Of a stretch of DNA of 64,000 nucleotides, positions 1,523 through 59,402 are shown piece after piece. The position numbers and the translations under genes are program-made. The stretch comes from Spirochaetia bacterium (GTDB lineage Bacteria > Spirochaetota > Spirochaetia > CADAEX01), in NCBI GenBank assembly GCA_963662265.2, contig CAXXHA010000010.1, forward strand, positions 1 through 64,000, given 5' to 3'. Position 1 is the first letter of the stretch, and every line of letters starts with the position of its first letter. The notes below the pieces were generated by a model, which searched no databases, was not told the origin of the DNA, and saw only the letters and a list, made by a program, of their open reading frames with translations.

Positions 1523-3770
1523 TCCTCCCCCCCTCTAAATCATTTTCATAAGCTGTAATAACAGTTAAATATGCTATTAAATATGAAAGGGTACTTTCAG
1601 CTCCCTGATTTCTGTTGACCCCGGTGCTCTCAAGCCCTTCATTGCAGCCATATGTTTCGAAGTCATAGAGCGGCAGACGCAGGTCATTTTCGCCCAAAAA
1701 CCACATAAATGACCTGAACATTTTTTTAAGATACTGATTATCATTTGTAACAACATACGCCTGATTAAACATAAGAACCATTGCCATAGCATCAACAGGC
1801 TGCTGATCATACTGAGATCTTATCTCCCCTTTTCTAAACCACCTGTCACTTCCTATCAGGGAAATGTATCCCTCTCTGAAAACTGTCTCATCAAGGAACT
1901 CCATTGATTCTTTTGCAGTTTTAAAAACCTCCTCATCCCCGATTATTTCAAAGGCCTGAAAAAGAGAAAAAGGTATAATTCCATTGTCATATGCAAGAAC
2001 CGGTTCAAACCAGTGCCAGTTTGCACTCCTTTGATTCCTGTACATTTCAGTAATTTTAACTATCATCTCCTTAAGTATGCTGATCATTTCTTCATCCCCC
2101 GGAAAGCGGTGAAGCCAGCTGCTGATTCCAAGCACAGTATTTGATATTCCCCTGAGTGAGGATAATTTTTTAAAATTGGGAGAAGCATTTAGAAACATCT
2201 CTTTTCCGATTTCAAAATATGTATCATTCGGGGGATATCGGACAAGATTTCCCAGAGCCCAGATTGTTCTTCCGAATGAATCTTCAGACCCTATTTGATC
2301 AAGAAACCTCCGGTCAAAGCCTAGAAAATTCCTGAAAGTACCGTCATCATTCTGCATGTATTGAATATAACTTAAATAAAATGACATTAGATCCAGAACT
2401 TTTTGATCCTTCAGCAGGTTGTATGCCATTGTTCCCATTAAAAGTGCACGCGAATTATCATCCAGACAGTATCCATCTTTGAATCTGGGAATATTATACT
2501 TGGCATGCTGAATAATACCAGTACTGTCTGTCAATCTTTTTATATGGCCAAGATCAAACTTAGGCAGAAGCAAAGGATTGATAACAGAGTCTTCTTTTGT
2601 CACAGTATCAGGTTCTGTTTCAATAAGCCCGATCACAAGATTAAGATATTTAAGTCCTATCTCCGGCCATATTGTTTTTCTCCCGTAATCATAGGCGTTT
2701 TTTCTCAATGTAGCTAATCTATGAGGGTTATCGAGTAATTCATTCAAAACTTTTGAAAGCTTAACAGAATCATTAAAATCGAAAAGTATCCCTCGGTTTT
2801 CAGCAAGAAGCTCCACAGCATGCCAGTAGGGGGTTGAAAGAACAGCAGCACCTGCTCCGATAGCATATGAAAGTGTACCGCTAGTTATCTGCGCCTCATT
2901 CAGATATGGAGTAACATAAATATCTGCAGCTGAAAGATAACCAAGTAATTCTTCAGTACTCACAAAACGATCATCAAAATAAACATTCTCCATGAGATTA
3001 TTTCTTCGCACCAGAAGTTTAAGATAATTTCGATATTCTTCTCCTGATACTCTTACTACTGCAGGATGGGTCTTTCCAAGTATTACATATAAAATATCAG
3101 GATGTTTATTTACAACTTCAGGAAGTGCGTTTATAACAGTCTCAATCCCCTTGTTTCTGCTTAAAAGGCCGAATGTTATCAAAGTTTTCTTTTTTTCGAC
3201 ATGAAACTTTTTTTTATGATAGAGATTCTGCATAAAATCAAAATCAGGAACACCATGTTCTATAACCTCTATCTTCTCCACCGGTATTTCATAAATACTT
3301 GTTAAAAAATCAACAGCGATTTTGCTCATTACAACTATTTTAGCAGCTCTTTTTCCTATCTCCCGGACAATATTCTTCTGATCATAGGATGGCTCCTGCA
3401 AAACTGTATGGAAAATTACTAGAAGAGGGATCTTTAAACGATAAATAAGAGGTAAAATATAAACACCGCTATTTCCACCGTATATACCAAACTCATGCTG
3501 CAGAATACAAATATCAGCATCGCTGTAATTTATATACTTAACCGCTTCCAGATAATCCTGAGGATGATTTTGATTAATTACATGGGTAACATCTTTCGAA
3601 TACTGGTATTCCTGATTAGGATCGTTTAAAGCTACAACAAAAGCATCTGCCTTAATATTTTTTTCTCTGTTATTATTAACCAGGGAATCAATCAGATTCA
3701 TTGTAAATGTAGCAATACCGCACTGACGGGGAGGATAATTCCCGATACATACAATTTTTAATTTTTTCAT
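1500..3770 (-). CDS. GT4 glycosyltransferase fused to a C-terminal six-hairpin glycosidase-like domain
   Basis: GNYPPRQCGIATFT, QHEFGIYGG, FGLLSRNKGIE and QITSGTLSYA in the GT4 part; GIIQHA...GYCLDDNSRAL, FEPVLAYDN, YDQQPVDA and NRNQGAESTL in the C-terminal domain. Confidence 0.85.
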   Translation of the reverse strand: MKKLKIVCIGNYPPRQCGIATFTMNLIDSLVNNNREKNIKADAFVVALNDPNQEYQYSKDVTHVINQNHPQDYLEAVKYINYSDADICILQHEFGIYGGNSGVYILPLIYRLKIPLLVIFHTVLQEPSYDQKNIVREIGKRAAKIVVMSKIAVDFLTSIYEIPVEKIEVIEHGVPDFDFMQNLYHKKKFHVEKKKTLITFGLLSRNKGIETVINALPEVVNKHPDILYVILGKTHPAVVRVSGEEYRNYLKLLVRRNNLMENVYFDDRFVSTEELLGYLSAADIYVTPYLNEAQITSGTLSYAIGAGAAVLSTPYWHAVELLAENRGILFDFNDSVKLSKVLNELLDNPHRLATLRKNAYDYGRKTIWPEIGLKYLNLVIGLIETEPDTVTKEDSVINPLLLPKFDLGHIKRLTDSTGIIQHAKYNIPRFKDGYCLDDNSRALLMGTMAYNLLKDQKVLDLMSFYLSYIQYMQNDDGTFRNFLGFDRRFLDQIGSEDSFGRTIWALGNLVRYPPNDTYFEIGKEMFLNASPNFKKLSSLRGISNTVLGISSWLHRFPGDEEMISILKEMIVKITEMYRNQRSANWHWFEPVLAYDNGIIPFSLFQAFEIIGDEEVFKTAKESMEFLDETVFREGYISLIGSDRWFRKGEIRSQYDQQPVDAMAMVLMFNQAYVVTNDNQYLKKMFRSFMWFLGENDLRLPLYDFETYGCNEGLESTGVNRNQGAESTLSYLIAYLTVITAYENDLEGGRNGSDKQI

Positions 3771-49871: not shown

Positions 49872-51962
49872 ATGAGACTCAACGTAAAATGGAAGATCCT
49901 TCTTCCGGTAGTATTAATTCTTGTAATCTCCCTGGGAACAGTTACAGGATATTCGTACCTGCTTCAGAAAAAAATGGTGCATGATCTTATGGAAACAACT
50001 GCAGCTGAACAGCTGTCTGAAATAAGCAACATTGTAGAATCTTCAGAAAAACAGATCAGAAATCTTAAAAGTTCTCTCAACAGGAATTACCTGAGAATTG
50101 CAGAAACAATTGCAATAGCTGTCAAGGATGGAAGCAGTATTCTTGAAACAGGAAAAATGACAGAACTTGCAGAAACTGCAGGAATTGATGAAATCCATGT
50201 TACTGATGAAAACGGGATCCTCAGATGGGGAAACAAAACTGGTTTCTACGGATTTGATTTCAATACAAGCGATCAGACACAACCCTTTCTTGCGGGACTG
50301 AAAAATCCCTCCTTCCAGCTTGCCCAGGATCCCCAGCAGAGGGGTACAGACAAGGTCCTTTTTCAGTACATCGGTGTTGGGAGAAAAGACAGACCTGGAA
50401 TAGTACAGATAGGGGTTCAGCCGCTTGAGCTCAACAACCTTCTGGAATCATCATCAATCAGGAACACACTCAAAAACCTCAATATATCAAGGTCAGGTGT
50501 TGTCTATATTATCAATTCTGATGGAACAATTGCTGAAAGCTCTGCAATACTCAATGATAAACATCTTAACCCGGAATTGTGGAATTTCATTAAAAATTCC
50601 GGTAAAGAGGGAAAAGGCATTGTTGAAGACAGGTATGCAGGATTCATGGAAAACGATGATTACATATGGATGGTCACTTACCCGCTTACAGAGTTCACAT
50701 CAGAACTGAACAGCTTCCTTATACATGTCTTTATCATGTTTATTGTGCTTGCAGCAGTATCTGCAGCTGTAATCCTTCTCATTGTAAGCAGGATCACAAA
50801 TCCGCTTAAGAAAGGTGTAACTTTTGCAAACATGATTGCTCAAGGGGACCTCACAGCAGACCTTGAAGTGAATACTTCAGATGAGGTAGGAGTTCTTGCA
50901 TCGACACTCAGGCAGATGGTAGGCAAAATCAGCAACGTGGTGGAAAAAGTAGCAGACACATCACTGACAGTTGCATCAGGCAGCAGGCAGCTGAGCCAGA
51001 ACACTGTAAAAATGGCAGAAGGTACAAGCTCCCAGGCATCAGCAACTGAAGAGGTTTCAGCTTCCATGGAGGAGATGAGCGCGAACATAACCCAGAATGC
51101 GGAAAACGCCGACACAACAGAGAGAATTGCGATGCAGGCAGCAAAAGATGCTGTTGAAAGCAGCAAGTCAGCTAAAAAAGCTGTTGATGCAATGAATGTT
51201 ATAAATGAGAAAATCAGCATTGTGGAAGAGATTGCAAGGCAGACAAATATGCTTGCTCTTAATGCTGCCATAGAAGCTGCCCGGGCAGGGGAGCAGGGAA
51301 AAGGCTTTGCAGTTGTTGCATCTGAAGTCAGGAAACTGGCAGAAAGAAGCCAACAGGCTGCCGGTGAAATAACAGAACTTACCCAGTTGACAAGCGCTTC
51401 AGCAGATGAGACATCTGCAATGCTTAAAAAGCTTGTAGACGGAATTAACCAGACAGCCGAGCTTGTCAGGGAGATAAGTTCGGCAAGCAGGGAGCAGAGC
51501 GGAGGAGTTCAGCAGGTAAACAGGGCAATTCTCCAGCTTGATGAGGTTGTTCAGCAGAACGCATCCTTCTCTGAAGAGATTTCAGCCACAAGCGAGGAGC
51601 TTACAGCGCAGGCTGAATTTCTACAGGAGACTGTTTCCTACTTCAGGATTGATAAATCATCTTCAACAGGGGAAGATGCAGGTCTTCTTCTCCCGGCCGA
51701 AAGAAATGCCGGCAATGGCAGAGCTGCGGAATTAAATACTGCGGGTGTTTCGGCAGGAAGGAAAAGCTCTTCAGGCAGTGCTTCTGTTATAAGGGCTGCC
51801 GGAGCCGGGCAGGTTCGGATCACATCAGGGGCTGCCGGGGCTGCGGGAAAAACAGAAGAAACAGCTGCAGTTTTCAAGGCAGTATCAGCTGCTGAGTCAT
51901 TAAACAACGGAAATCCTTCTGATACTGATTCGATGTCAGATGGAGGGTTTAAGGAGTTTTAG
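49872..51962 (+). CDS. Methyl-accepting chemotaxis protein
   Basis: TM-sensor-TM-HAMP, [40 protein letters not shown], and a flexible tail ending GFKEF. Confidence 0.95.
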
Positions 51963-52109
51963 GTGGATCTGAAATTCTTATTTCATGATAATTGCACCAA
52001 GATGATTATGCCGTATAGATAAGAAGCTGCTTATCGGAAATCCGAGAGTACCGGGATTAAGTAACCGGGAAATACAATCAGCTACAGGCTGTGTGCAAAC
52101 TTGAATATT

Positions 52110-52143
52110 AAAAAGGCCTGCTTTGACAAGCAGGTCTTTTTTT
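52110..52143. terminator. Bidirectional terminator between the MCP and VOC genes
   Basis: AAAAAGGCCTGCTT-TGAC-AAGCAGGTCTTTTTTT. Confidence 0.8.
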
Positions 52144-52153
52144 AAAAGGGATT

Positions 52154-52636
52154 CTACATCCCCATGCTTTCAAGCCATTCCTTTTCATTCTTTTTCATCT
52201 CATCTTCAGTAAGCTTCCACTTATTTGTCGCTATAGCCCAGACATGGCCGAAGGGATCAAGGACTTTCCCCATCCTGTCTCCCCAGAATGCATCCATTAT
52301 TTCATCCACAATTTCAGATCCGTTTTCCACCATTCCATTGTAAACAGCATCACAGTCTTCAACATATATAAACAAGCTCACAGTAGTCCCGTTAATAGCA
52401 CCTTTCTCCACACCTCCCGGATAGGAATCAGCCATCATAAGATTTGTATCCCCAATTCTTATCATTGAATGCATTATCTTATCACTGCCTGGAAAACTGT
52501 AAGGGGGAAAAACAAGTTCCGCCCCCAGCACTTTCCTGTAATATTCAATAGCTTCTGAACAGTTTCCATTAAACCACAGATTAGCTGTTACATTGTTCAT
52601 CCCTTCTGGGACAGGTTTTAATGCTTTTTCAGCCAT
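52154..52636 (-). CDS. VOC/PhnB-family (glyoxalase-like) protein
   Basis: AIEYYRKVLGA, IMHSMIRIGD, DAFWGDRMGKVLDPFGHVW. Confidence 0.9.
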   Translation of the reverse strand: MAEKALKPVPEGMNNVTANLWFNGNCSEAIEYYRKVLGAELVFPPYSFPGSDKIMHSMIRIGDTNLMMADSYPGGVEKGAINGTTVSLFIYVEDCDAVYNGMVENGSEIVDEIMDAFWGDRMGKVLDPFGHVWAIATNKWKLTEDEMKKNEKEWLESMGM

Positions 52637-52907
52637 TAAAATTCTCCTTGTATAGAGATCTGTAAGTATGAATAATTAAGCCTTGAATTTTCTGTTTAAA
52701 CACCTGAAACATTTTATACCTTACTTTTATTAATAGTAGTTTCAAAATGATCTGTTTTCAAAAGAAACTCTTACATGAGGCTGTATTTACAATAAATTTT
52801 AATAAAATCAGATATTCTGAAGGCTTTATAAATTAAACAGGACGAAAATTCTTTCTTCAGGACCGGAAGATAATTTCATATTTAAACAAGCAGTGTTTTA
52901 AATATAA

Positions 52908-52971
52908 AATAATATCGATATTATTGTATCCAATATTGACATTTTTCTTATTCGATACTATATTATCCATA
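52908..52971 (+). promoter_or_regulatory. Unit 1 promoter with TATCGATA operator
   Basis: Palindrome AATAATATCGATATTATT 52908-52925; TTGACA 52936-17-TATATT 52959. Confidence 0.75.
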
Positions 52972-53237
52972 CAGGTTGGGCAAACAACCTGTAGGTGAAA
53001 ATATTTTGTTTTTGAGAAAATCAAAAATAAAAAAAGAAAATAGAATGTACGAAAGACCTCTGGTAAATGGCAAAATAATATCAGAAATAAGGTCTTTCAA
53101 TAAAAAAACTGCAAATACGTCCGGCAAAACAGTATTTGCAGTTATAATCTAAGACTTTTTTATAGATTCCTCCTAACCTTCTAAAAAGAGTTTTATTCAT
53201 GGGAACCTGCTGTAAGTTTTACAGCAGGTTCTTTTTT
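52970..53237 (+). ncRNA. Candidate structured sRNA of about 270 nt (unit 1)
   Basis: Lies between a promoter and a U-tailed terminator (53203-53237); three hairpins with GGCAAA in their loops and one hairpin exposing TTCCTCCT; no RBS-led ORF. Confidence 0.6.
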
Positions 53238-53576
53238 CATTATTACCTCCTGTAATAATGAGTTGTTATTTATAAAACTGCAGTGAGTTTCACTGCAGTT
53301 TTTCTTTTTGCTGGCCGTTGCTGCATAAACAGGCTTTTTATACTTATAATTCTGCATTTATTTCACAGACTTATCCGCTGATCACCTGGCAGAAATCTTA
53401 TATTTCCCTATTAACAGCTTTCAAGGACTCTAAAGCTGTTAAACTTATTTCAACAGTGTTTTATCCTCCCGGAATAATTCTAATTATCACGCAGTCTAAA
53501 CACTGTTTTGCCCATATTCCCATATGGAGCCCACCTGTCTACCTATCTAACTACCCAGAACCATGTAGATAAATTT

Positions 53577-53637
53577 TTATCGATAATTACATATCTTATA
53601 TTGACATTTTTTATTTTCGATAGTATGTTATCGATAG
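53577..53637 (+). promoter_or_regulatory. Unit 2 promoter with two TATCGATA operators
   Basis: TTATCGATAA 53577-53586; TTGACA 53601-17-TATGTT 53624; TTATCGATAG 53628-53637. Confidence 0.75.
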
Positions 53638-53676
53638 TTAGAGATTGAAATAAATAGTATTTCAAGGAGGACAATT

Positions 53677-53772
53677 ATGTTAGAAATTTTAATTGTAGCT
53701 ATTATAGCAGCTGGTGCAGTTTTTGCATTCATAGAAGACGGTCGTGTTAGTCCTAACGGAATCGACTGGTAA
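53677..53772 (+). CDS. 31-aa hydrophobic peptide MLEILIVAIIAAGAVFAFIEDGRVSPNGIDW
   Basis: AAGGAGG RBS 53664-53670, own promoter, paralogue at 54205; too short for the ORF track. Confidence 0.75.
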   Translation: MLEILIVAIIAAGAVFAFIEDGRVSPNGIDW

Positions 53773-53803
53773 TCTAGAAAAAACTTGTTTTGAGGAGATC
53801 AAA

Positions 53804-53947
53804 ATGAAAAAAATACTTAGTAAATTATCAGAAAGACCATTTATCAATGGCAAACAGAGACATATTAAAAAAGAAGGCCTTTCAATTAAGGCAGTTGCAG
53901 AAGCAACAGGAAAATCAATTGAATCTGTACTTTCAATGAAATTCTAA
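53804..53947 (+). CDS. 47-aa basic peptide with HTH-like C-terminus
   Basis: GAGGAG RBS, ATG 53804; MKKILSKLSERPFINGKQRHIKKEGLSIKAVAEATGKSIESVLSMKF. Confidence 0.6.
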   Translation: MKKILSKLSERPFINGKQRHIKKEGLSIKAVAEATGKSIESVLSMKF

Positions 53948-53991
53948 AACTTCTTTTTAACTTCAAACCTTCTAAATTTTGAGTTTTATTC

Positions 53992-54028
53992 AAAAGACCT
54001 GCTGAGCCGTATACAGCAGGTCTTTTTT
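53992..54028 (+). terminator. Unit 2 terminator
   Basis: AAAAGACCTGCTG/CAGCAGGTCTTTT stem plus T-run. Confidence 0.8.
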
Positions 54029-54102
54029 AATTTTTCAGTGAAAATCATTGATAACCTTTGTTCAGGAAGTAGATAAATAAAAATCATGCATTTTGATAAT
54101 AT

Positions 54103-54164
54103 ATTATCGATAATGCTGTATCCATACTTGACTTTTTCAGTTATCCTTTATACATTATCAATAA
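54103..54164 (+). promoter_or_regulatory. Unit 3 promoter with TATCGATA operators
   Basis: ATTATCGATAAT 54103-54114; TTGACT 54128-17-TACATT 54151; TTATCAATAA 54155-54164. Confidence 0.75.
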
Positions 54165-54204
54165 CTTTAAATACGATTTTAATAATCTTGTTAAGGAGGC
54201 CAGC

Positions 54205-54306
54205 ATGTTACTTATCAATACTTTAGTAATCATGGCTATTGCAGCAGGAGTTTTAGCTGCATTCATTGAAGATGGAAAAACAGCACCAAATTGCTGTGAC
54301 TGGTAG
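54205..54306 (+). CDS. 33-aa hydrophobic peptide MLLINTLVIMAIAAGVLAAFIEDGKTAPNCCDW
   Basis: TAAGGAGG RBS 54192-54199; shares IAAG...AFIEDG...PN..DW-stop with the 53677 peptide, with synonymous changes between them. Confidence 0.75.
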   Translation: MLLINTLVIMAIAAGVLAAFIEDGKTAPNCCDW

Positions 54307-54517
54307 AAAGTAGTCTGAAGATTTCAGATACTTGTAAAAACTGAAAACAATCAGTAGAAAGGTCTGTAATTTACAACAGGATTAACAATATAGAGAAAGG
54401 AAGACCTTTCACATTACATTCCATGATGCTGCAGCAAAAACAACAGAATCGGCATCCGGAATGTAAAACAAAAGACTTTTTAGATTCCTCCAAAATTCTA
54501 AAAAGAGTTTTATTTCC

Positions 54518-54550
54518 AGGCCCCGCAGCGTTGCTGAGGGGCCTTTTTTT
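54518..54550 (+). terminator. Unit 3 terminator
   Basis: AGGCCCC-GCAGC...GCTG-AGGGGCCT stem plus T-run. Confidence 0.8.
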
Positions 54551-54685
54551 CCCCCTTTCACGCAAATACCCATTCTCTCGGCAGCTTCATAAGATTTAAT
54601 AATAAAATTCCGCCTCTTGCGATTTATATGCATATCATGCAACTTCAACCATCCAGGTATTTTTACAAAATAATTACAGACTGTA

Positions 54686-54740
54686 TTGACTTTTTCCCTT
54701 TTCGATAGTATTATATCGATAACAAGTTACCGATAACAAG
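54686..54740 (+). promoter_or_regulatory. Unit 4 promoter with downstream operators
   Basis: TTGACT 54686-17-TATTAT 54709; ATATCGATAAC 54713-54723 and GTTACCGATAAC 54726-54737. Confidence 0.65.
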
Positions 54741-54802
54741 CAATATTTCTGATGGCCAGAAATGTTTGACTTTATAAATACAACTGGAATAAGGCTGGAG
54801 AT

Positions 54803-54835
54803 AAAAAAAATCCCGGATCCGAAGAACCGGGATTT
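54803..54835 (-). terminator. gdhA terminator, possibly also ending the unit 4 transcript
   Basis: A8 followed by the AAATCCCGG/CCGGGATTT stem. Confidence 0.75.
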
Positions 54836-54871
54836 ATATAAGCCTAATCAGGCTAAATATAAAACTATATC

Positions 54872-56209
54872 CTAGTAACCGAGATCAAGCATTGCATCTG
54901 CAACTTTCTTGAAACCGGCAATATTAGCACCGTTGATGTAGTTTACAAAACCTGAAGCATCTTTGCCTTCTCTAACACAAGCAGCGTGGATGTCTTTCAT
55001 GATTACTTTGAGTTTTGCATCAACTTCTTCAGATGACCAGTTGTATTTCATTGAGTTCTGGCACATTTCAAGACCTGATACTGCAACACCACCGGCATTA
55101 GCAGCTTTACCAGGACCAAACGGGATCTTGTTTTTAACAAACTCAACTGCAGCATCTGCAGTACAGCCCATGTTGGATGTTTCAACAACATATTTAACAC
55201 CGTTTGAGATAAGAGCTTTTGCATCATCGAGAGTAAGCTCGTTCTGGAAAGCACAGGGGAATGCCATATCAACTTTAAGTTCCCATGGTTTTTTACCTGC
55301 AACAAATTTTGCGCCGAATTTTTCAGCGTAAGGAGCTACAACATCATTGTTGGAAGCTCTGAGCTCAAGCATATAGTCAAATTTTTCTTTTGTATTGATA
55401 CCTGCTTCATCATAGATGTATCCGTCAGGTCCAGAAATTGCCACTACTTTACCACCAAGTTCAGTAGCCTTCATTACAGCACCCCAGGCAACATTACCGA
55501 AACCTGAAACAGCAATTGTTTTGCCTTTCATTGAATCATTGTTTGTTTTGAGCATTTCATCAGCAAAATACATTGTACCAAAACCAGTTGCTTCAGGTCT
55601 TACAAGTGAACCGCCCCAGTTAAGGCCTTTACCTGTGAGTACACCTGTGTTTTCAGCTCTGAGTCTCTTGTACTGACCATACATGAAACCGATTTCTCTT
55701 CCGCCTACTCCGATATCACCTGCAGGAACGTCAGTCTGAGGACCGATATATTTCTGAAGTTCTGTCATGAAACTTCGACAGAATCTCATGATTTCTGCAT
55801 CTGATTTACCTTTAGGATTAAAGTCTGAACCACCTTTACCTCCACCCATTGGGAGAGTAGTAAGACTGTTTTTGAAAATCTGCTCAAATCCGAGGAATTT
55901 AAGAGTTCCGAGAGTAACGCTTGGGTGGAATCTGAGTCCGCCCTTATATGGACCAATAGCGTTGTTAAACTGAACTCTGTAAGCCTTGTTTACCTGTACT
56001 TCACCGTTATCATCTTCCCATTCAACTTTGAACATGAAAGTTCTGTCCGGCTCAGTAATTCTTTCAAGGATTTTTGCATCTACATATGCAGGGTTGTCGT
56101 TAACTACATCAATAATAGATTCAACTACTTCTTTTGCAGCCTGAATAAATTCCGGCTGAGCTGGGTTTTTTCTTTCCAGTTCTGCCATAAATTCGTCAAG
56201 ATTATACAT
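54872..56209 (-). CDS. gdhA: NAD(P)-specific glutamate dehydrogenase
   Basis: GPYKGGLRFHPSV, LPMGGGKGGSDF, DVPAGDIGVG, RPEATGFG, GFGNVA; AAGGAG RBS before ATG 56209. Confidence 0.96.
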   Translation of the reverse strand: MYNLDEFMAELERKNPAQPEFIQAAKEVVESIIDVVNDNPAYVDAKILERITEPDRTFMFKVEWEDDNGEVQVNKAYRVQFNNAIGPYKGGLRFHPSVTLGTLKFLGFEQIFKNSLTTLPMGGGKGGSDFNPKGKSDAEIMRFCRSFMTELQKYIGPQTDVPAGDIGVGGREIGFMYGQYKRLRAENTGVLTGKGLNWGGSLVRPEATGFGTMYFADEMLKTNNDSMKGKTIAVSGFGNVAWGAVMKATELGGKVVAISGPDGYIYDEAGINTKEKFDYMLELRASNNDVVAPYAEKFGAKFVAGKKPWELKVDMAFPCAFQNELTLDDAKALISNGVKYVVETSNMGCTADAAVEFVKNKIPFGPGKAANAGGVAVSGLEMCQNSMKYNWSSEEVDAKLKVIMKDIHAACVREGKDASGFVNYINGANIAGFKKVADAMLDLGY

Positions 56210-56414
56210 TTCTAACAGCTCCTTAAAACATTTTAATACCACCCCTCAGGGCGGTATTACTTATCTATATATAAAGCCTATTTCTGATATTAATCAAGTA
56301 TTAATATTGGCCTATCTATACATCTATACAAGTTAAATCATGAATATTGTTGATATTTAACATAGTGGTGTATTATTATTAAGAAAACGAACATTCTTTT
56401 TTAAGGAATTTACA

Positions 56415-59402
56415 ATGAATAATCCTCTTGCATCCAAGTTTCATTTCAAGGAAACCCCATTTAAACAGCTTATGGATAAAAGGATAAATGACATACTCCT
56501 TGTATGCAGCAAATATGACAAATTCATGCTTGATGAAGACGGCAGAATTGATGAACAGCTTTTCCAGGAATATGTGTCCCTCAACCTCCGCTATCCTCCC
56601 CGTTTCACACATGTTTCAACAGAGGAAGAAGCTTTTGAAAAGCTCTACACGGAGAATTTCGACCTTGTAATTACAATGCTCAACTTCAAGGGAACACTCG
56701 TTCTTGACCTTGCGGAAAACATAAAAACAGCATATCCCGATATACCTGTAGTTGTATTGAGCCCGTTTTCAAAGGCTATTTCAAAGAAACTTCAGGCTCT
56801 TCAAAATGTCAAGGCAGACTATATTTTCTCATGGCTCGGCAATGCAAGGCTGCTGCTGGCAATTGTAAAACTTATTGAGGATAAAATGAATGTTGAGCAT
56901 GATGTGGAAATCGCAGGTGTTCAGACAATTATTCTTGTAGAAGACTCAATCCGTTACTATTCAAGTTACCTGCCCAACATATACAGGCTTCTTTTCCGGC
57001 AGGCCAGAAGGATTATGGAAGAGGGGTTAAATGAATATCAGCAGAATACAAGGATGAGAGGAAGGCCGAAAATTCTCCTTGCAACTTCCTATGAGGAGGC
57101 TATCGAGCTTTATGAAAAATACAAGAACAATACTCTCGGTGTAATTTCCGATATCGGATATAAACGGGAAGGTGTTGAAGACCCTGTTGCAGGGCTGAAA
57201 CTGAGCAGACTGATTCGGGAGGAAAACACAGATGTTCCCATACTGCTTCAGTCGGCCCAGCTTGACCTTAAGGAGGAGGCCTCCACATATAACGCATCCT
57301 TTATCTACAAGCACTCTGAGACCCTGCTTAAAGAGCTGAGAGACTATATCAAAGACAATTACGGCTTCGGAGACTTTATATTCAAAGACCCTGAAGGGAT
57401 GACTCTTGAAAAGGCGAGAAACCTCAAAGAGCTTCAGGAAAAACTCGCAATTGTTCCAAACTATTCTGTCGAACACCATATCAGACAGAACCACTTTTCA
57501 AAGTGGATGAGGGCAAGAGCGCTTTTTACACTTGCAGAAATTTTCAAGCCTATCCAGCTCAAGGATTTTGACGGGTCTCTTCTTGAGACAAAAAAGTATC
57601 TTATTGAAATTATCAAGCTCTACAGAAAACAGACCGGAAAGGGTTCAATCGCAAGTTTTGACAACAACAGGTTTGATGATTTTACATCATTCGCAAGAAT
57701 CGGGGACGGTTCACTCGGGGGAAAAGCAAGAGGTCTCGCTTTCATTGATAATATAATTAAAAGGCATGACCTTCTGTTCAAATACAAGAACATAACAATC
57801 AGTATCCCTAAAACAATTGTTCTTTCAACATCTGTCTTTGAAGATTTCATGGACCTAAACAACCTGTACAGTACAGCTCACTCAATAAAAACAGACAAGC
57901 TTATGTTAAACGCGTTTCTCCAGGCGGAACTGCCGGAATATATGCATGAATATATAAAAACAATCCTGACTGTAGTAACCAGGCCTATTGCAGTAAGATC
58001 ATCCAGTCTTCTCGAAGACTCACTCTACCAGCCTTTTGCGGGAGTTTATGCAACATACATGCTTCCAAACAACAACGAAGACCTTAAAATCAGGTGTCTT
58101 CAGCTGGAACAGGCTGTAAAAAGTGTTTTTGCATCAACATATTCCAGAAAAAGCAAGGCATATATTTCTGCAACAAAAAATGTAATTGACGAGGAAAAAA
58201 TGGGTGTAATAATCCAGGAAGTGACCGGACAGGAGCATGACGGGTATTTCTATCCCGATTTTGCAGGAGTTGCCAGATCATACAACTACTACCCTCTTCC
58301 TAATGAAAAAACTGAAGAGGGGATAGCAGATATTGCTCTGGGGCTTGGTAAGACTGTTGTTGAGGGGGGAACAGGCCTGAGATTTTCACCTTCCCATCCA
58401 AAAAAAAACATAATGTTTTCTTCAGTTGATACTGCCCTCAAATCAAGCCAGAAAGTTTTTCACGCCCTGGACTTAAGCCCGTACAGTTTTACTCCTTCGA
58501 TAGACCAGGAGGAAAATATTCCCCGTCTGGATATTGACAGGGCATTTGAAAACCCGACATTCAAGTATATCGGATCTACATATGACATGCAGAACAATGC
58601 AATCAAGGACACAGTAAATGCTCAGGGAAAGAAAATTGTTACATTTGCCGGAATTCTCAAGTACAAAATGTTTCCCATTGCAGACATACTCAAGGAACTA
58701 CTTGCAATAGGTCATGAATCAATGCAGTGCCCTGTTGAAATTGAATTTGCTGTCAATTTAAGCCCGAATCCTGAAATACCGCACAAATTCAGCTTTCTTC
58801 AGATCAGGCCGATAGTAGAAGGGCTTGAAGCGATTGACCTCAATATCAACAACTACACAAAAGAAGATAAAATTATCCATTCAGATAAAGCCCTCGGAAA
58901 CGGAAAATATGAACAAATTCATGATTTTGTTTATATAAAACATGAAAGCTTTGATCCTGCACATACCCAGACTATGGCAGATACCCTGGACAGGATAAAC
59001 AACCAGTTTATTGAAGAAGACAGGAACTATATTCTCGAAGTTCCGGGCAGGCTGGGATCATCAGATCCGTGGCTGGGTATTCCTGTAAGCTGGGCCCAGA
59101 TATGCAATGCAAGGGTAATCATAGAATCCGGTCTTGAAAATTTCCAGGTTGAACCAAGCCAGGGGACCCACTTCTTCCACAATATAACTTCACTGAATAT
59201 TGCCTACTTCACAATCAACCCGTTTTATAAAGACGGATTTATCAACCTTGACTTCCTTAAAGAAGCAGAGGCTGTTTACGAGGATGAATTTATAAGACAC
59301 ATAAGGTTTGAAAAAACAATAAAGGTATTTGTTGACGGCAAGGACAGAAAAGGAATTATACTGAAACCGGGAGTAGGCGCTATTGATATGATGAACCTTT
59401 AA
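56415..59402 (+). CDS. PEP-synthase/PPDK N-terminal (ATP-grasp) domain protein with receiver-like N-terminal domains
   Basis: GSLGGKARGL, AVRSSSLLEDS..QPFAGVY, EEKMGVIIQEV, VEIEFA..LQIRP, PSQGTHFFHN; N-terminal ILLV.../LVEDSIRYYS receiver-like segments. Confidence 0.85.
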   Translation: MNNPLASKFHFKETPFKQLMDKRINDILLVCSKYDKFMLDEDGRIDEQLFQEYVSLNLRYPPRFTHVSTEEEAFEKLYTENFDLVITMLNFKGTLVLDLAENIKTAYPDIPVVVLSPFSKAISKKLQALQNVKADYIFSWLGNARLLLAIVKLIEDKMNVEHDVEIAGVQTIILVEDSIRYYSSYLPNIYRLLFRQARRIMEEGLNEYQQNTRMRGRPKILLATSYEEAIELYEKYKNNTLGVISDIGYKREGVEDPVAGLKLSRLIREENTDVPILLQSAQLDLKEEASTYNASFIYKHSETLLKELRDYIKDNYGFGDFIFKDPEGMTLEKARNLKELQEKLAIVPNYSVEHHIRQNHFSKWMRARALFTLAEIFKPIQLKDFDGSLLETKKYLIEIIKLYRKQTGKGSIASFDNNRFDDFTSFARIGDGSLGGKARGLAFIDNIIKRHDLLFKYKNITISIPKTIVLSTSVFEDFMDLNNLYSTAHSIKTDKLMLNAFLQAELPEYMHEYIKTILTVVTRPIAVRSSSLLEDSLYQPFAGVYATYMLPNNNEDLKIRCLQLEQAVKSVFASTYSRKSKAYISATKNVIDEEKMGVIIQEVTGQEHDGYFYPDFAGVARSYNYYPLPNEKTEEGIADIALGLGKTVVEGGTGLRFSPSHPKKNIMFSSVDTALKSSQKVFHALDLSPYSFTPSIDQEENIPRLDIDRAFENPTFKYIGSTYDMQNNAIKDTVNAQGKKIVTFAGILKYKMFPIADILKELLAIGHESMQCPVEIEFAVNLSPNPEIPHKFSFLQIRPIVEGLEAIDLNINNYTKEDKIIHSDKALGNGKYEQIHDFVYIKHESFDPAHTQTMADTLDRINNQFIEEDRNYILEVPGRLGSSDPWLGIPVSWAQICNARVIIESGLENFQVEPSQGTHFFHNITSLNIAYFTINPFYKDGFINLDFLKEAEAVYEDEFIRHIRFEKTIKVFVDGKDRKGIILKPGVGAIDMMNL

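Follow-up and report, generated by a model that had tools for sequence, protein, structure and literature searches.

In type I toxin–antitoxin systems such as hok/Sok and aapA1/IsoA1, short hydrophobic peptide genes with strong Shine–Dalgarno (SD) sequences lie beside structured RNA that displays anti-SD-like pyrimidine motifs, and control is reportedly exerted by mRNA folding, through fold-back and anti-SD pairing. Dual-function small RNAs (sRNAs) of the SgrS/SgrT type are short transcripts that combine a small open reading frame (ORF) at the 5′ side with a conserved RNA element at the 3′ side, and some lineages lose the coding part and keep the 3′ element; a section of one report (PMC2760806) describes a Y. 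pestis SgrS homologue in which the sgrT coding sequence is absent and the 3′ pairing region is retained. Here we describe a locus with features of both systems in a 64,000-nucleotide stretch (hereafter the window) of contig CAXXHA010000010.1 from an uncultured Spirochaetia bacterium. Three homologous tandem units, recognised from repeat families and unit-to-unit alignment, fill the intergenic stretch between a glyoxalase-family gene (52154-52636, minus strand) and the glutamate dehydrogenase gene gdh (54872-56242, minus strand), and their alignment identifies them as tandem paralogous copies of a small cassette. At the centre of the cassette is an ORF of 47 amino acids (aa) with a putative helix-turn-helix (HTH) product, which is intact in unit 2. 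Among the three units, perfect hairpins built from this region (stem 1) are found only in units 1 and 3, where this ORF has been lost, and they are a gene remnant turned into folded RNA rather than one motif shared by all units.

By analogy, the cassette would work most like a dual-function sRNA with a dispensable ORF, a likeness of layout that is not a claim of class membership. It has no sequence relation to SgrS/SgrT and no Rfam match, its protein is a putative DNA-binding HTH protein, and the base-pairing role of its 3′ element is one that we infer. Moreover, the ORF has been converted into hairpins instead of being deleted, and the copies are tandem paralogues under one promoter type. The locus differs from type I toxin–antitoxin systems in that no overlapping antisense unit is seen and complementarity is limited to the length of the SD and anti-SD sequences; it also has a protein regulator and operator arrays, shuffled controls often pair similarly, and the peptides could be called toxins by resemblance only. 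A further comparison is with the products of template switching at quasi-palindromes, in which, according to parts of PMC8794818, imperfect inverted repeats are made perfect and multibase compensatory changes arise. In contrast to such products, the flanks are conserved here and the locus is unique in its genome, and the mechanism would apply by analogy. The 47-aa protein resembles small HTH proteins of the Xre/Cro, sigma region 4 or resolvase type in its classic HTH C-terminal half, its weak Pfam HTH similarity and its Foldseek rows of HTH domains, but it reaches no family threshold and is only 47 aa long, with an N-terminal helix and a β-hairpin. The locus is thus best filed as ORF-derived structured RNA within a genus-specific small-gene cassette.

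Copies were compared between the source genome (G000), two metagenome-assembled genomes (MAGs) of the same genus (G001 and G002) and a related syntenic metagenome contig (L042); U1 to U3 denote units 1 to 3. An initial annotation of the sequence had listed a pair of complementary arms in each unit, and all of these arms were recovered at the same coordinates. In unit 1, GAAAGACCT (53051-53059) and AGGTCTTTC (53090-53098) form nine Watson–Crick pairs around a loop of 30 nucleotides (nt), and in unit 3, GAAAGGTCT (54357-54365) and AGACCTTTC (54402-54410) form nine pairs around a loop of 36. The unit 2 arms, GAAAGACC (53831-53838) and GGCCTTTC (53876-53883), contain one A·C mismatch. As the annotation had reported, AC to GT on the 5′ arm is mirrored by GT to AC on the 3′ arm, so that pairs 6 and 7 differ two-sidedly between units 1 and 3.

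The origin of these arms is apparent from the reading frame of unit 2, where the 5′ arm is GAA-AGA-CC, encoding E-R-P, and the 3′ arm is GG-C-CTT-TC, encoding G-L-S, within the 47-aa ORF; these codons are partly self-complementary by composition (GAAAG and CTTTC). An ORF of this type is intact and preceded by an SD sequence in four copies from four species (G000 U2, G001 U2, G002 and L042 U1). Pairwise differences between the intact copies fall at the first, second and third codon positions in the numbers 2/3/11, 6/5/17 and 4/7/17, and 9/4/17 for L042 U1. By this pattern the unit 2 ORF is a real gene that evolves as a protein, and the third-position bias means that protein coding explains the conservation of the stem arms. 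The view that structure and not sequence is under selection in all units is therefore not upheld, since the arms are ERP and EGLS codons, unit 2 evolves as protein and the stem is absent from its fold.

Comparison with L042 revealed how the other copies decayed. The L042 contig carries three units, with flanking genes as in G000, and its unit 1 holds an intact 46-aa ORF with an SD sequence (L042:2489-2629). Relative to this copy, unit 1 of G000 no longer has the SD sequence (GAGGAG, now GAGAAA) or the start codon (ATG, now ATA), and its frame is disrupted by indels. Unit 1 of G001 shows larger deletions, so that the two are broken in different ways, and no frame is kept between them in the ORF-derived part. 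In unit 3, no ORF occupies the former HTH region in any of the three species that have this unit (G000, G001 and L042). The remnants are nevertheless recognisable by local alignment to unit 2 (unit 1, z = 9.6; unit 3, z = 5.1), and in neither case was any of 300 shuffles as good. The unit 3 3′ untranslated region (UTR) aligns with the KKEGLS...IES codons, and only the 3′ half of the ORF can still be made out in it. When the unit 3 3′ UTR was compared with G001 by BLAST, stem 1 was the sole part matched (85% over 53 nt). In a six-frame search with the HTH profile, unit 3 gave no match and unit 1 only a weak, fragmentary one (E 0.17). The ORF is thus at different stages of decay, intact in one species and decayed in two for unit 1, and decayed in all three carriers for unit 3. 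On this sequence comparison, units 1 and 3 of G000 are decayed copies of the 47-aa gene, and the stem stands at a shared position because of common descent from coding sequence.

Folding of the individual copies separated the decayed from the coding-type sequences. For the predicted unit 1 RNA (52972-53201), z was -7.57, with none of 200 shuffles as good, and both hairpins were present in the minimum free energy (MFE) structure and in the centroid. The unit 3 3′ UTR (54304-54520) gave z = -4.85, again with 0/200 shuffles as good. The remaining decayed copies had values of -5.64 (G001 U1), -1.76 (G001 U3) and -1.77 (L042 U3), and the coding-type copies were unremarkable at -2.02 (G000 unit 2), -2.82, -0.75, -2.78 and -2.87. 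In unit 2 of G000, the stem lies outside both the MFE structure and the centroid. Stem 1 was part of the MFE structure in 3/5 decayed copies versus 1/5 coding-type copies, and pair 6 was formed in all four decayed copies that have letters there versus one of five coding-type copies. Taken with the fold scores, this pattern indicates that the structure signal is robust for unit 1 and weak for unit 3.

Pair 6, which is pair 11-55 of the alignment, is unpaired in 4/9 copies with letters at this position, and all four are coding-type copies (G000 U2, G001 U2, G002 and L042 U2). The base on its 3′ side occupies the third position of a Gly codon, a four-fold degenerate site; the codon reads GGC, GGG, GGA and GGA in these copies and GGT in L042 U1, where a perfect 8-bp stem results. 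The occurrence of all four bases at this position is as expected if only the protein matters.

In a 10-copy alignment (A3), 87.7% of cells are paired; pair 11-55 is GC in three copies, AU in two and unpaired in four, and pair 12-54 is CG in six, UA in two and unpaired in one. The covariation score was 0.136 versus 0.083 in shuffles (0/500 reached it, with slid controls lower), in a shuffle control that ignores relatedness. Two-sided change was seen in 2/9 pairs and four cells; that number of pairs was reached by 236/500 shuffles and that number of cells by 5/500. These changes correspond to two to three independent events in four species, located in the unit 3 ancestor (two pairs) and in G001 U1 (pair 6). 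Single-sided changes that remained paired through G·U were found at pair 2 of G001 U3 and at 53052 (A to G) in a relative's unit 1, the latter on one contig at a depth of 2.9. A near-identical strain is uninformative, with five differences in 1971 nt and none in the arms. The initial annotation had taken compensatory change as support for one conserved RNA stem in units 1-3. Of this, the stem itself stands, in that it forms in the non-coding copies and changes two-sidedly at pairs 6 and 7; its status as an RNA stem shared across the three units does not. Stem 1 of units 1 and 3 was also considered as an intrinsic terminator and rejected, as it is absent from the plus-strand terminator scan; AATAAAAAAAC follows position 53098 and ACATTACATT follows position 54410.

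A second hairpin lies downstream of stem 1 in both decayed units, at 53107-53143 in unit 1 (a perfect 12-bp stem with a loop of 13) and at 54414-54466 in unit 3 (nine perfect pairs and an inner stem). These had been described as occupying the same position with unrelated stem sequences. Both hairpins do exist, and the unit 3 stems of G000 and G001 differ from each other as well, yet they are built around a common GCTGCAG. In unit 1, single-sequence folds place hairpin 2 in all three orthologues, including the coding L042 copy. It has 12 perfect pairs in G000 and 9 + 6 pairs in G001, and in L042 it comprises ten Watson–Crick pairs, one G·U pair and one mismatch over 12 positions, plus an inner stem. 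When the pair lists are anchored on the TGC/GCA core and read by eye, at least four positions differ two-sidedly between the orthologues. Hairpin 2 of unit 1 is therefore better evidence for a maintained hairpin than stem 1, and its presence in L042 points to a unit 1 lineage that had this kind of structure even when it still coded.

The density of such structures sets the locus apart. Between 52650 and 54870 there are 15 perfect inverted repeats of at least 9 bp (loops of 3-60 nt), versus 1.2 ± 1.1 (maximum 6) in 200 dinucleotide shuffles, and 15 of the 39 such perfect stems of the 64-kb window sit in this interval. In a scan of the 3.77-Mb assembly by 2.2-kb intervals, the locus was the most hairpin-dense, with 14 stems against 11 for the runner-up and a genome mean of 0.68 per kb.

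Each cassette would be read in the order operator-rich promoter, peptide ORF (units 2 and 3 only), 47-aa HTH ORF, CCUCC-loop hairpin and terminator. A near-consensus sigma-70-type promoter set within TATCGATA-type boxes opens each unit, and an upstream TTATCGATA box is present in 10/11 aligned cassette promoters from four species. The predicted unit 1 transcript consists of a 5′ hairpin, a decayed ribosome-binding hairpin, stem 1, hairpin 2, the CCUCC-loop hairpin and the terminator. The features of the locus, with the evidence for each, are as follows.

52904-52971, plus strand: predicted promoter/operator P1 (TTGACA-17-TATATT), which is preceded by a TATCGATA palindrome and has TATC-type half sites both within the spacer and beyond the -10 element (repeat family D1; promoter scan 11/12).
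52972-53240, plus strand: predicted unit 1 transcript of ~265 nt, non-coding here (MFE and centroid; alignment to G001 and to the intact L042 copy).
53051-53098, plus strand: unit 1 stem 1, 9 bp with an inner 7-bp extension, with arms that once were the ERP and GLS codons (by homology with L042:2489-2629, where the ORF is intact).
53107-53143, plus strand: unit 1 hairpin 2, whose loop CCGGCAAA derives from the A-G-K codons of the HTH.
53150-53195, plus strand: unit 1 3′ hairpin with the anti-SD-like loop UUCCUCCUAACCU (folds; cross-species invariance).
53201-53238, plus strand: predicted unit 1 intrinsic terminator (terminator scan; one compensatory U-A to C-G pair, G000 versus G001 and L042).
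53569-53636, plus strand: predicted promoter/operator P2 (repeat family, promoter scan, 11-promoter alignment).
53677-53772, plus strand: unit 2 hydrophobic peptide ORF, 31 aa, with a strong SD sequence (differences to G001 by codon position 4/3/10).
53804-53947, plus strand: unit 2 intact 47-aa HTH ORF, with an SD sequence upstream, holding both unit 2 arms.
53992-54030, plus strand: predicted unit 2 terminator (repeat family D2, inverted-repeat scan).
54096-54163, plus strand: predicted promoter/operator P3 (repeat family, promoter scan, 11-promoter alignment).
54205-54306, plus strand: unit 3 hydrophobic peptide ORF, 33 aa (differences to G001 by codon position 3/1/12).
54357-54410, plus strand: unit 3 stem 1, 9 bp with a loop of 36, and a rival local hairpin at 54395-54410.
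54414-54466, plus strand: unit 3 hairpin 2.
54476-54505, plus strand: unit 3 3′ CCUCC-loop hairpin (inverted-repeat scan, folds, alignment).
54519-54550, plus strand: predicted unit 3 terminator, GGCCCC...GGGGCC followed by a T run (cross-species alignment).
54654-54721, plus strand: orphan fourth promoter copy P4, which lacks the upstream box, faces the gdh 3′ end and has no counterpart in G001 or L042.

The P4 copy, present in this genome only, would give a transcript of ~120 nt toward the gdh 3′ end that stops at the bidirectional gdh terminator (54808-54835).

No RNA element of the cassette is better conserved than the 3′ CCUCC hairpin. In unit 1, the segment that runs from the former stop codon to the end of the terminator has 86/91 columns invariant among G000, G001 and L042, versus about one third in the ORF-derived part. 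This invariance of the 3′ hairpin and terminator holds whether the ORF is intact (L042) or decayed (G000 and G001), marking an RNA element that is independent of the ORF. A contig from another sequencing run is 50/50 identical over 53154-53203, and the sequence before this part reads like the end of an intact L042-type ORF. The element consists of a U-run/A-run stem with UUCCUCC in a loop of 12-13 nt, followed by CCUUCU. CCUCC falls in the predicted loop in 8/10 units and is degenerate in G000 U2 and G001 U2. On an unfitted alignment (A6), 76% of the cells of the CCUCC stem are paired, and seven pairs change two-sidedly, a number reached by 4/500 shuffles. In partition-function folds, the peptide SD sequence pairs with the 3′ CCUUCU or CCUCC element at P > 0.9 in 3/6 peptide mRNAs, and we treat this pairing as a lead only.

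A second hairpin with a CCUCC-type loop (CATTATTAC-CTCCT-GTAATAATG) lies just past the unit 1 terminator, at 53237-53307, together with a second terminator at 53274-53302. This hairpin and terminator are kept in G001, with compensatory changes in the terminator stem, and the minus strand of the same segment contains AGGAGG and a 15-codon mini-ORF that overlaps the unit 1 terminator. Rfam gave four matches at E <= 1 in 50000-58000, with 22.9-27.1 bits against thresholds of 47-70 and none on the stems; one of them, a sub-threshold mir-126 match, falls in 53237-53307. Two further perfect hairpins occur at 53411-53442 (11 bp, loop 10) and 53452-53507 (10 bp, loop 36, with CCTCCC in the loop). Elsewhere in the G000 assembly, the next hairpin-dense intervals are C41:42501-44700, C14:3001-5200 and C13:18001-20200, with 10-11 perfect stems each; they were considered as similar cassettes and rejected, being mostly AT-rich or ATGTATGT-type low-complexity repeats.

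The explanation that we consider probable, though well short of certain, is that a micro-HTH cassette was triplicated and that the arms of stem 1 are codons inherited from it, with unit 2 being the gene and units 1 and 3 former genes with folded RNA, whose transcripts persist through the promoter and the 3′ element. The arms would have been inherited with their complementarity built in. The unit 2 gene is alive, with only protein constraint visible, and the RNA of units 1 and 3 would have become, or stayed, folded. Unit 1 is most likely, to judge from its sequence, a structured non-coding RNA of ~265 nt, and the unit 3 remnant would be a structured 3′ UTR. We propose that transcripts of the decayed copies persist because the promoter and the 3′ anti-SD-like element are conserved; such transcripts may still work through the 3′ CCUCC/CCUUCU element, which could base-pair, in cis or in trans, with the SD sequences of the mRNAs for the peptide or the HTH protein. 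Hairpins upstream of this element may serve stability and folding in a generic way and not as one conserved motif, and the HTH protein may bind the promoter boxes and repress the shared promoters. A bolder form of this explanation, a protein gene turning into a regulatory RNA in four related Spirochaetia, seems to us unlikely. It would start from a triplicated dual-function transcript with a micro-HTH ORF and a 3′ anti-SD hairpin, of which two copies shed their coding part and were remodelled into hairpin-dense RNAs, with the invariant CCUCC/CCUUCU seed braking translation of the neighbouring membrane peptides, in the manner of a type I antitoxin, and of the HTH repressor.

Several observations weigh against the triplicated-cassette explanation. 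In the full-length fold of G000 unit 3, the 5′ arm of stem 1 pairs elsewhere and the 3′ arm is taken up in the GAAAGG-AAGA-CCTTTC hairpin (54395-54410). In G001 U3, stem 1 is not in the MFE structure and a local GAAAGG-NNNN-CCTTTC hairpin competes with it; this local hairpin showed no covariation. In L042 U3, the counterpart of the 5′ arm forms 8 bp with a partner that lies closer to it, and the distal arm folds back on itself. The unit 3 remnants are not unusually stable in two of three species, and neither MFE nor G·U counts revealed a consistent asymmetry between the plus and minus strands. The two hairpins of the 53411-53507 spacer lie outside any predicted unit and have no counterpart in G001. 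Shuffled 3′ elements often pair the SD sequence equally well, with only 3/6 transcripts exceeding most controls. The transcripts, their ends and any function are predictions from consensus promoters and terminators only. Carriers of the cassette number just four species, which as kin are not independent.

Some of the same observations would follow if the hairpins were a neutral by-product of mutation. After decay of the ORF, template switching at imperfect inverted repeats (quasi-palindrome mutation, which has reportedly been described in E. coli) could have perfected or created hairpins, in which case the compensatory changes would be single mutational events and the stems would have no RNA function. 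The 15 perfect Watson–Crick stems of at least 9 bp are in keeping with this, as are the quasi-palindromes of the coding ancestor, in which stem 1 is 7/8 complementary and, in L042, hairpin 2 deviates from perfection at two of 12 positions by one G·U pair and one mismatch. Different lineages built different hairpins from homologous sequence, the plus strand has no folding advantage, and the perfect hairpins in the non-conserved spacer at 53411-53507 fit a mutational origin. Template switching is also documented (PMC8794818) as a process by which RNA stems are generated and kept up and multibase compensatory changes arise without selection. On the other hand, hairpin density is extreme at this locus and nowhere else in the genome, so that it is not a genome-wide mutational bias. 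On either side of its decayed part, unit 1 has kept the promoter, 5′ hairpin, 3′ hairpin and terminator; both species without the unit 1 ORF have a strongly folded unit 1; and the two single-sided changes in the arms of stem 1 are G·U-compatible on the transcribed strand. We consider a purely mutational origin of the stems a serious but rather doubtful possibility.

The reading of the initial annotation, in which one structured RNA element is kept and selected for structure in all three units including unit 2, for example as a cis-regulatory element overlapping a small ORF, draws on the high proportion of paired cells over the 10 copies, the two covarying pairs and the intact L042 unit 1 ORF, whose perfect 8-bp stem is extended by 6 bp in the MFE structure. 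We find it improbable, given that pair 6 is mismatched in 4/5 coding-type copies at a four-fold degenerate site where every one of the four bases occurs, that the stem is missing from the MFE structure in 4/5 coding-type copies and that the z values of these copies, -0.75 to -2.9, are unremarkable. It is more improbable still that units 1 and 3 encode different small proteins in the stem region and that the stems are incidental. G000 unit 1 does contain an ATG-started frame of 35 codons from 53046, but this frame has no SD sequence and is not kept in G001, where it meets stops and large deletions; the corresponding frame of G000 unit 3 lacks a start codon, and the six-frame profile search speaks against residual coding in both units.

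The triplicated-cassette explanation carries a caution for comparative RNA analysis, namely that compensatory-looking changes between paralogous units can stem from decayed coding sequence and that a stem which is also seen in an intact gene copy does not speak for a conserved RNA motif. With copies at different stages of ORF decay, this genus-restricted and uncharacterised cassette of uncultured Spirochaetia offers a small natural series in which to study how codons give rise to hairpins, be it through selection or through template switching, and whether the 3′ anti-SD element outlives the ORF. If a protein gene is indeed turning into a regulatory RNA here, the birth of its hairpins could be traced stepwise from known codons.

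The 47-aa product is modelled as a putative minimal HTH protein. Its AF2 model (pLDDT 80) consists of a helix, a β-hairpin and three C-terminal helices, and the C-terminal half reads as a classic HTH (I-KEGLSIKAVA-ATGKS-ETV). A Foldseek search of the model against the PDB returned nothing at E <= 0.001 (best E 1.8); the top rows, which are not significant, are HTH domains with ~25 residues aligned at a root-mean-square deviation of 1-1.5 Å. Pfam and NCBIfam gave nothing at threshold for this protein, with sub-threshold Pfam HTH matches for the G002 copy (E 0.07-0.25), and a protein atlas gave HTH_3 and HTH_26 as leads only. The start region of the ORF forms a conserved hairpin with GGAGA in the loop and AUG in the stem, in which one G-C to A-U compensatory change was found. 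Close relatives of the 47-aa protein number five among 5.8 billion proteins; among 1.84 billion representatives, the family has six matches at E <= 0.001, and the weaker ones are proteins of repeated HTH motifs. The L042 unit 2 ORF (3215-3358) keeps its full length, with a 1-nt loss and a 1-nt gain bracketing residues 9-27, which are read in a shifted frame, and its protein is also in a database as P0007. This frameshift may be real or may be a homopolymer sequencing error.

The cassette is confined to a narrow group. BLAST of unit 2 against its own genome found no further copy, matches outside the locus having E >= 0.127. A DNA search of 61 relatives' genomes matched six at E <= 0.001, including G000, of which the real ones are the two same-genus genomes only; matches of 29-45 nt in three relatives (E about 5e-4) were rejected as low-complexity. 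The HTH profile was strong in 3/3 genomes of the genus and 0/17 others among 20 family genomes, with the rest at E >= 0.04. Scans of sequence collections with the HTH alignment found one metagenome locus and three genome-collection loci, the latter being two same-genus MAGs and, in another phylum, a weak match over 19 residues. For the cassette products, none of Pfam, NCBIfam, PHROGs or PADLOC had a match at threshold. Contigs from two runs fuse a P1-like promoter (52971) to the HTH start region (53788), with 816 nt skipped; these probably come from other organisms with a single promoter–HTH unit, as in G002.

The hydrophobic peptide is encoded in six copies of 31-33 aa that have one hydrophobic helix and IAAG..A..ED...P...DW in common, and the protein atlas held no usable match for it. 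Among 301 genomes of the class, its profile was strong only in G000 and G001, with one weaker stand-alone paralogue in G001. This paralogue (G001:C1:2611693-2611791; about 792-892 in L066) is 33 aa long, reads ...AFIED...KKEW and has its own SD sequence and terminator but not the TATCGATA promoter, and another small hydrophobic ORF lies ~250 nt upstream of it. Beyond gdh, the window contains an ORF of 995 aa (56415-59402) with an N-terminal response-regulator receiver domain and a PPDK_N domain (phosphoenolpyruvate-utilising, ATP-binding).

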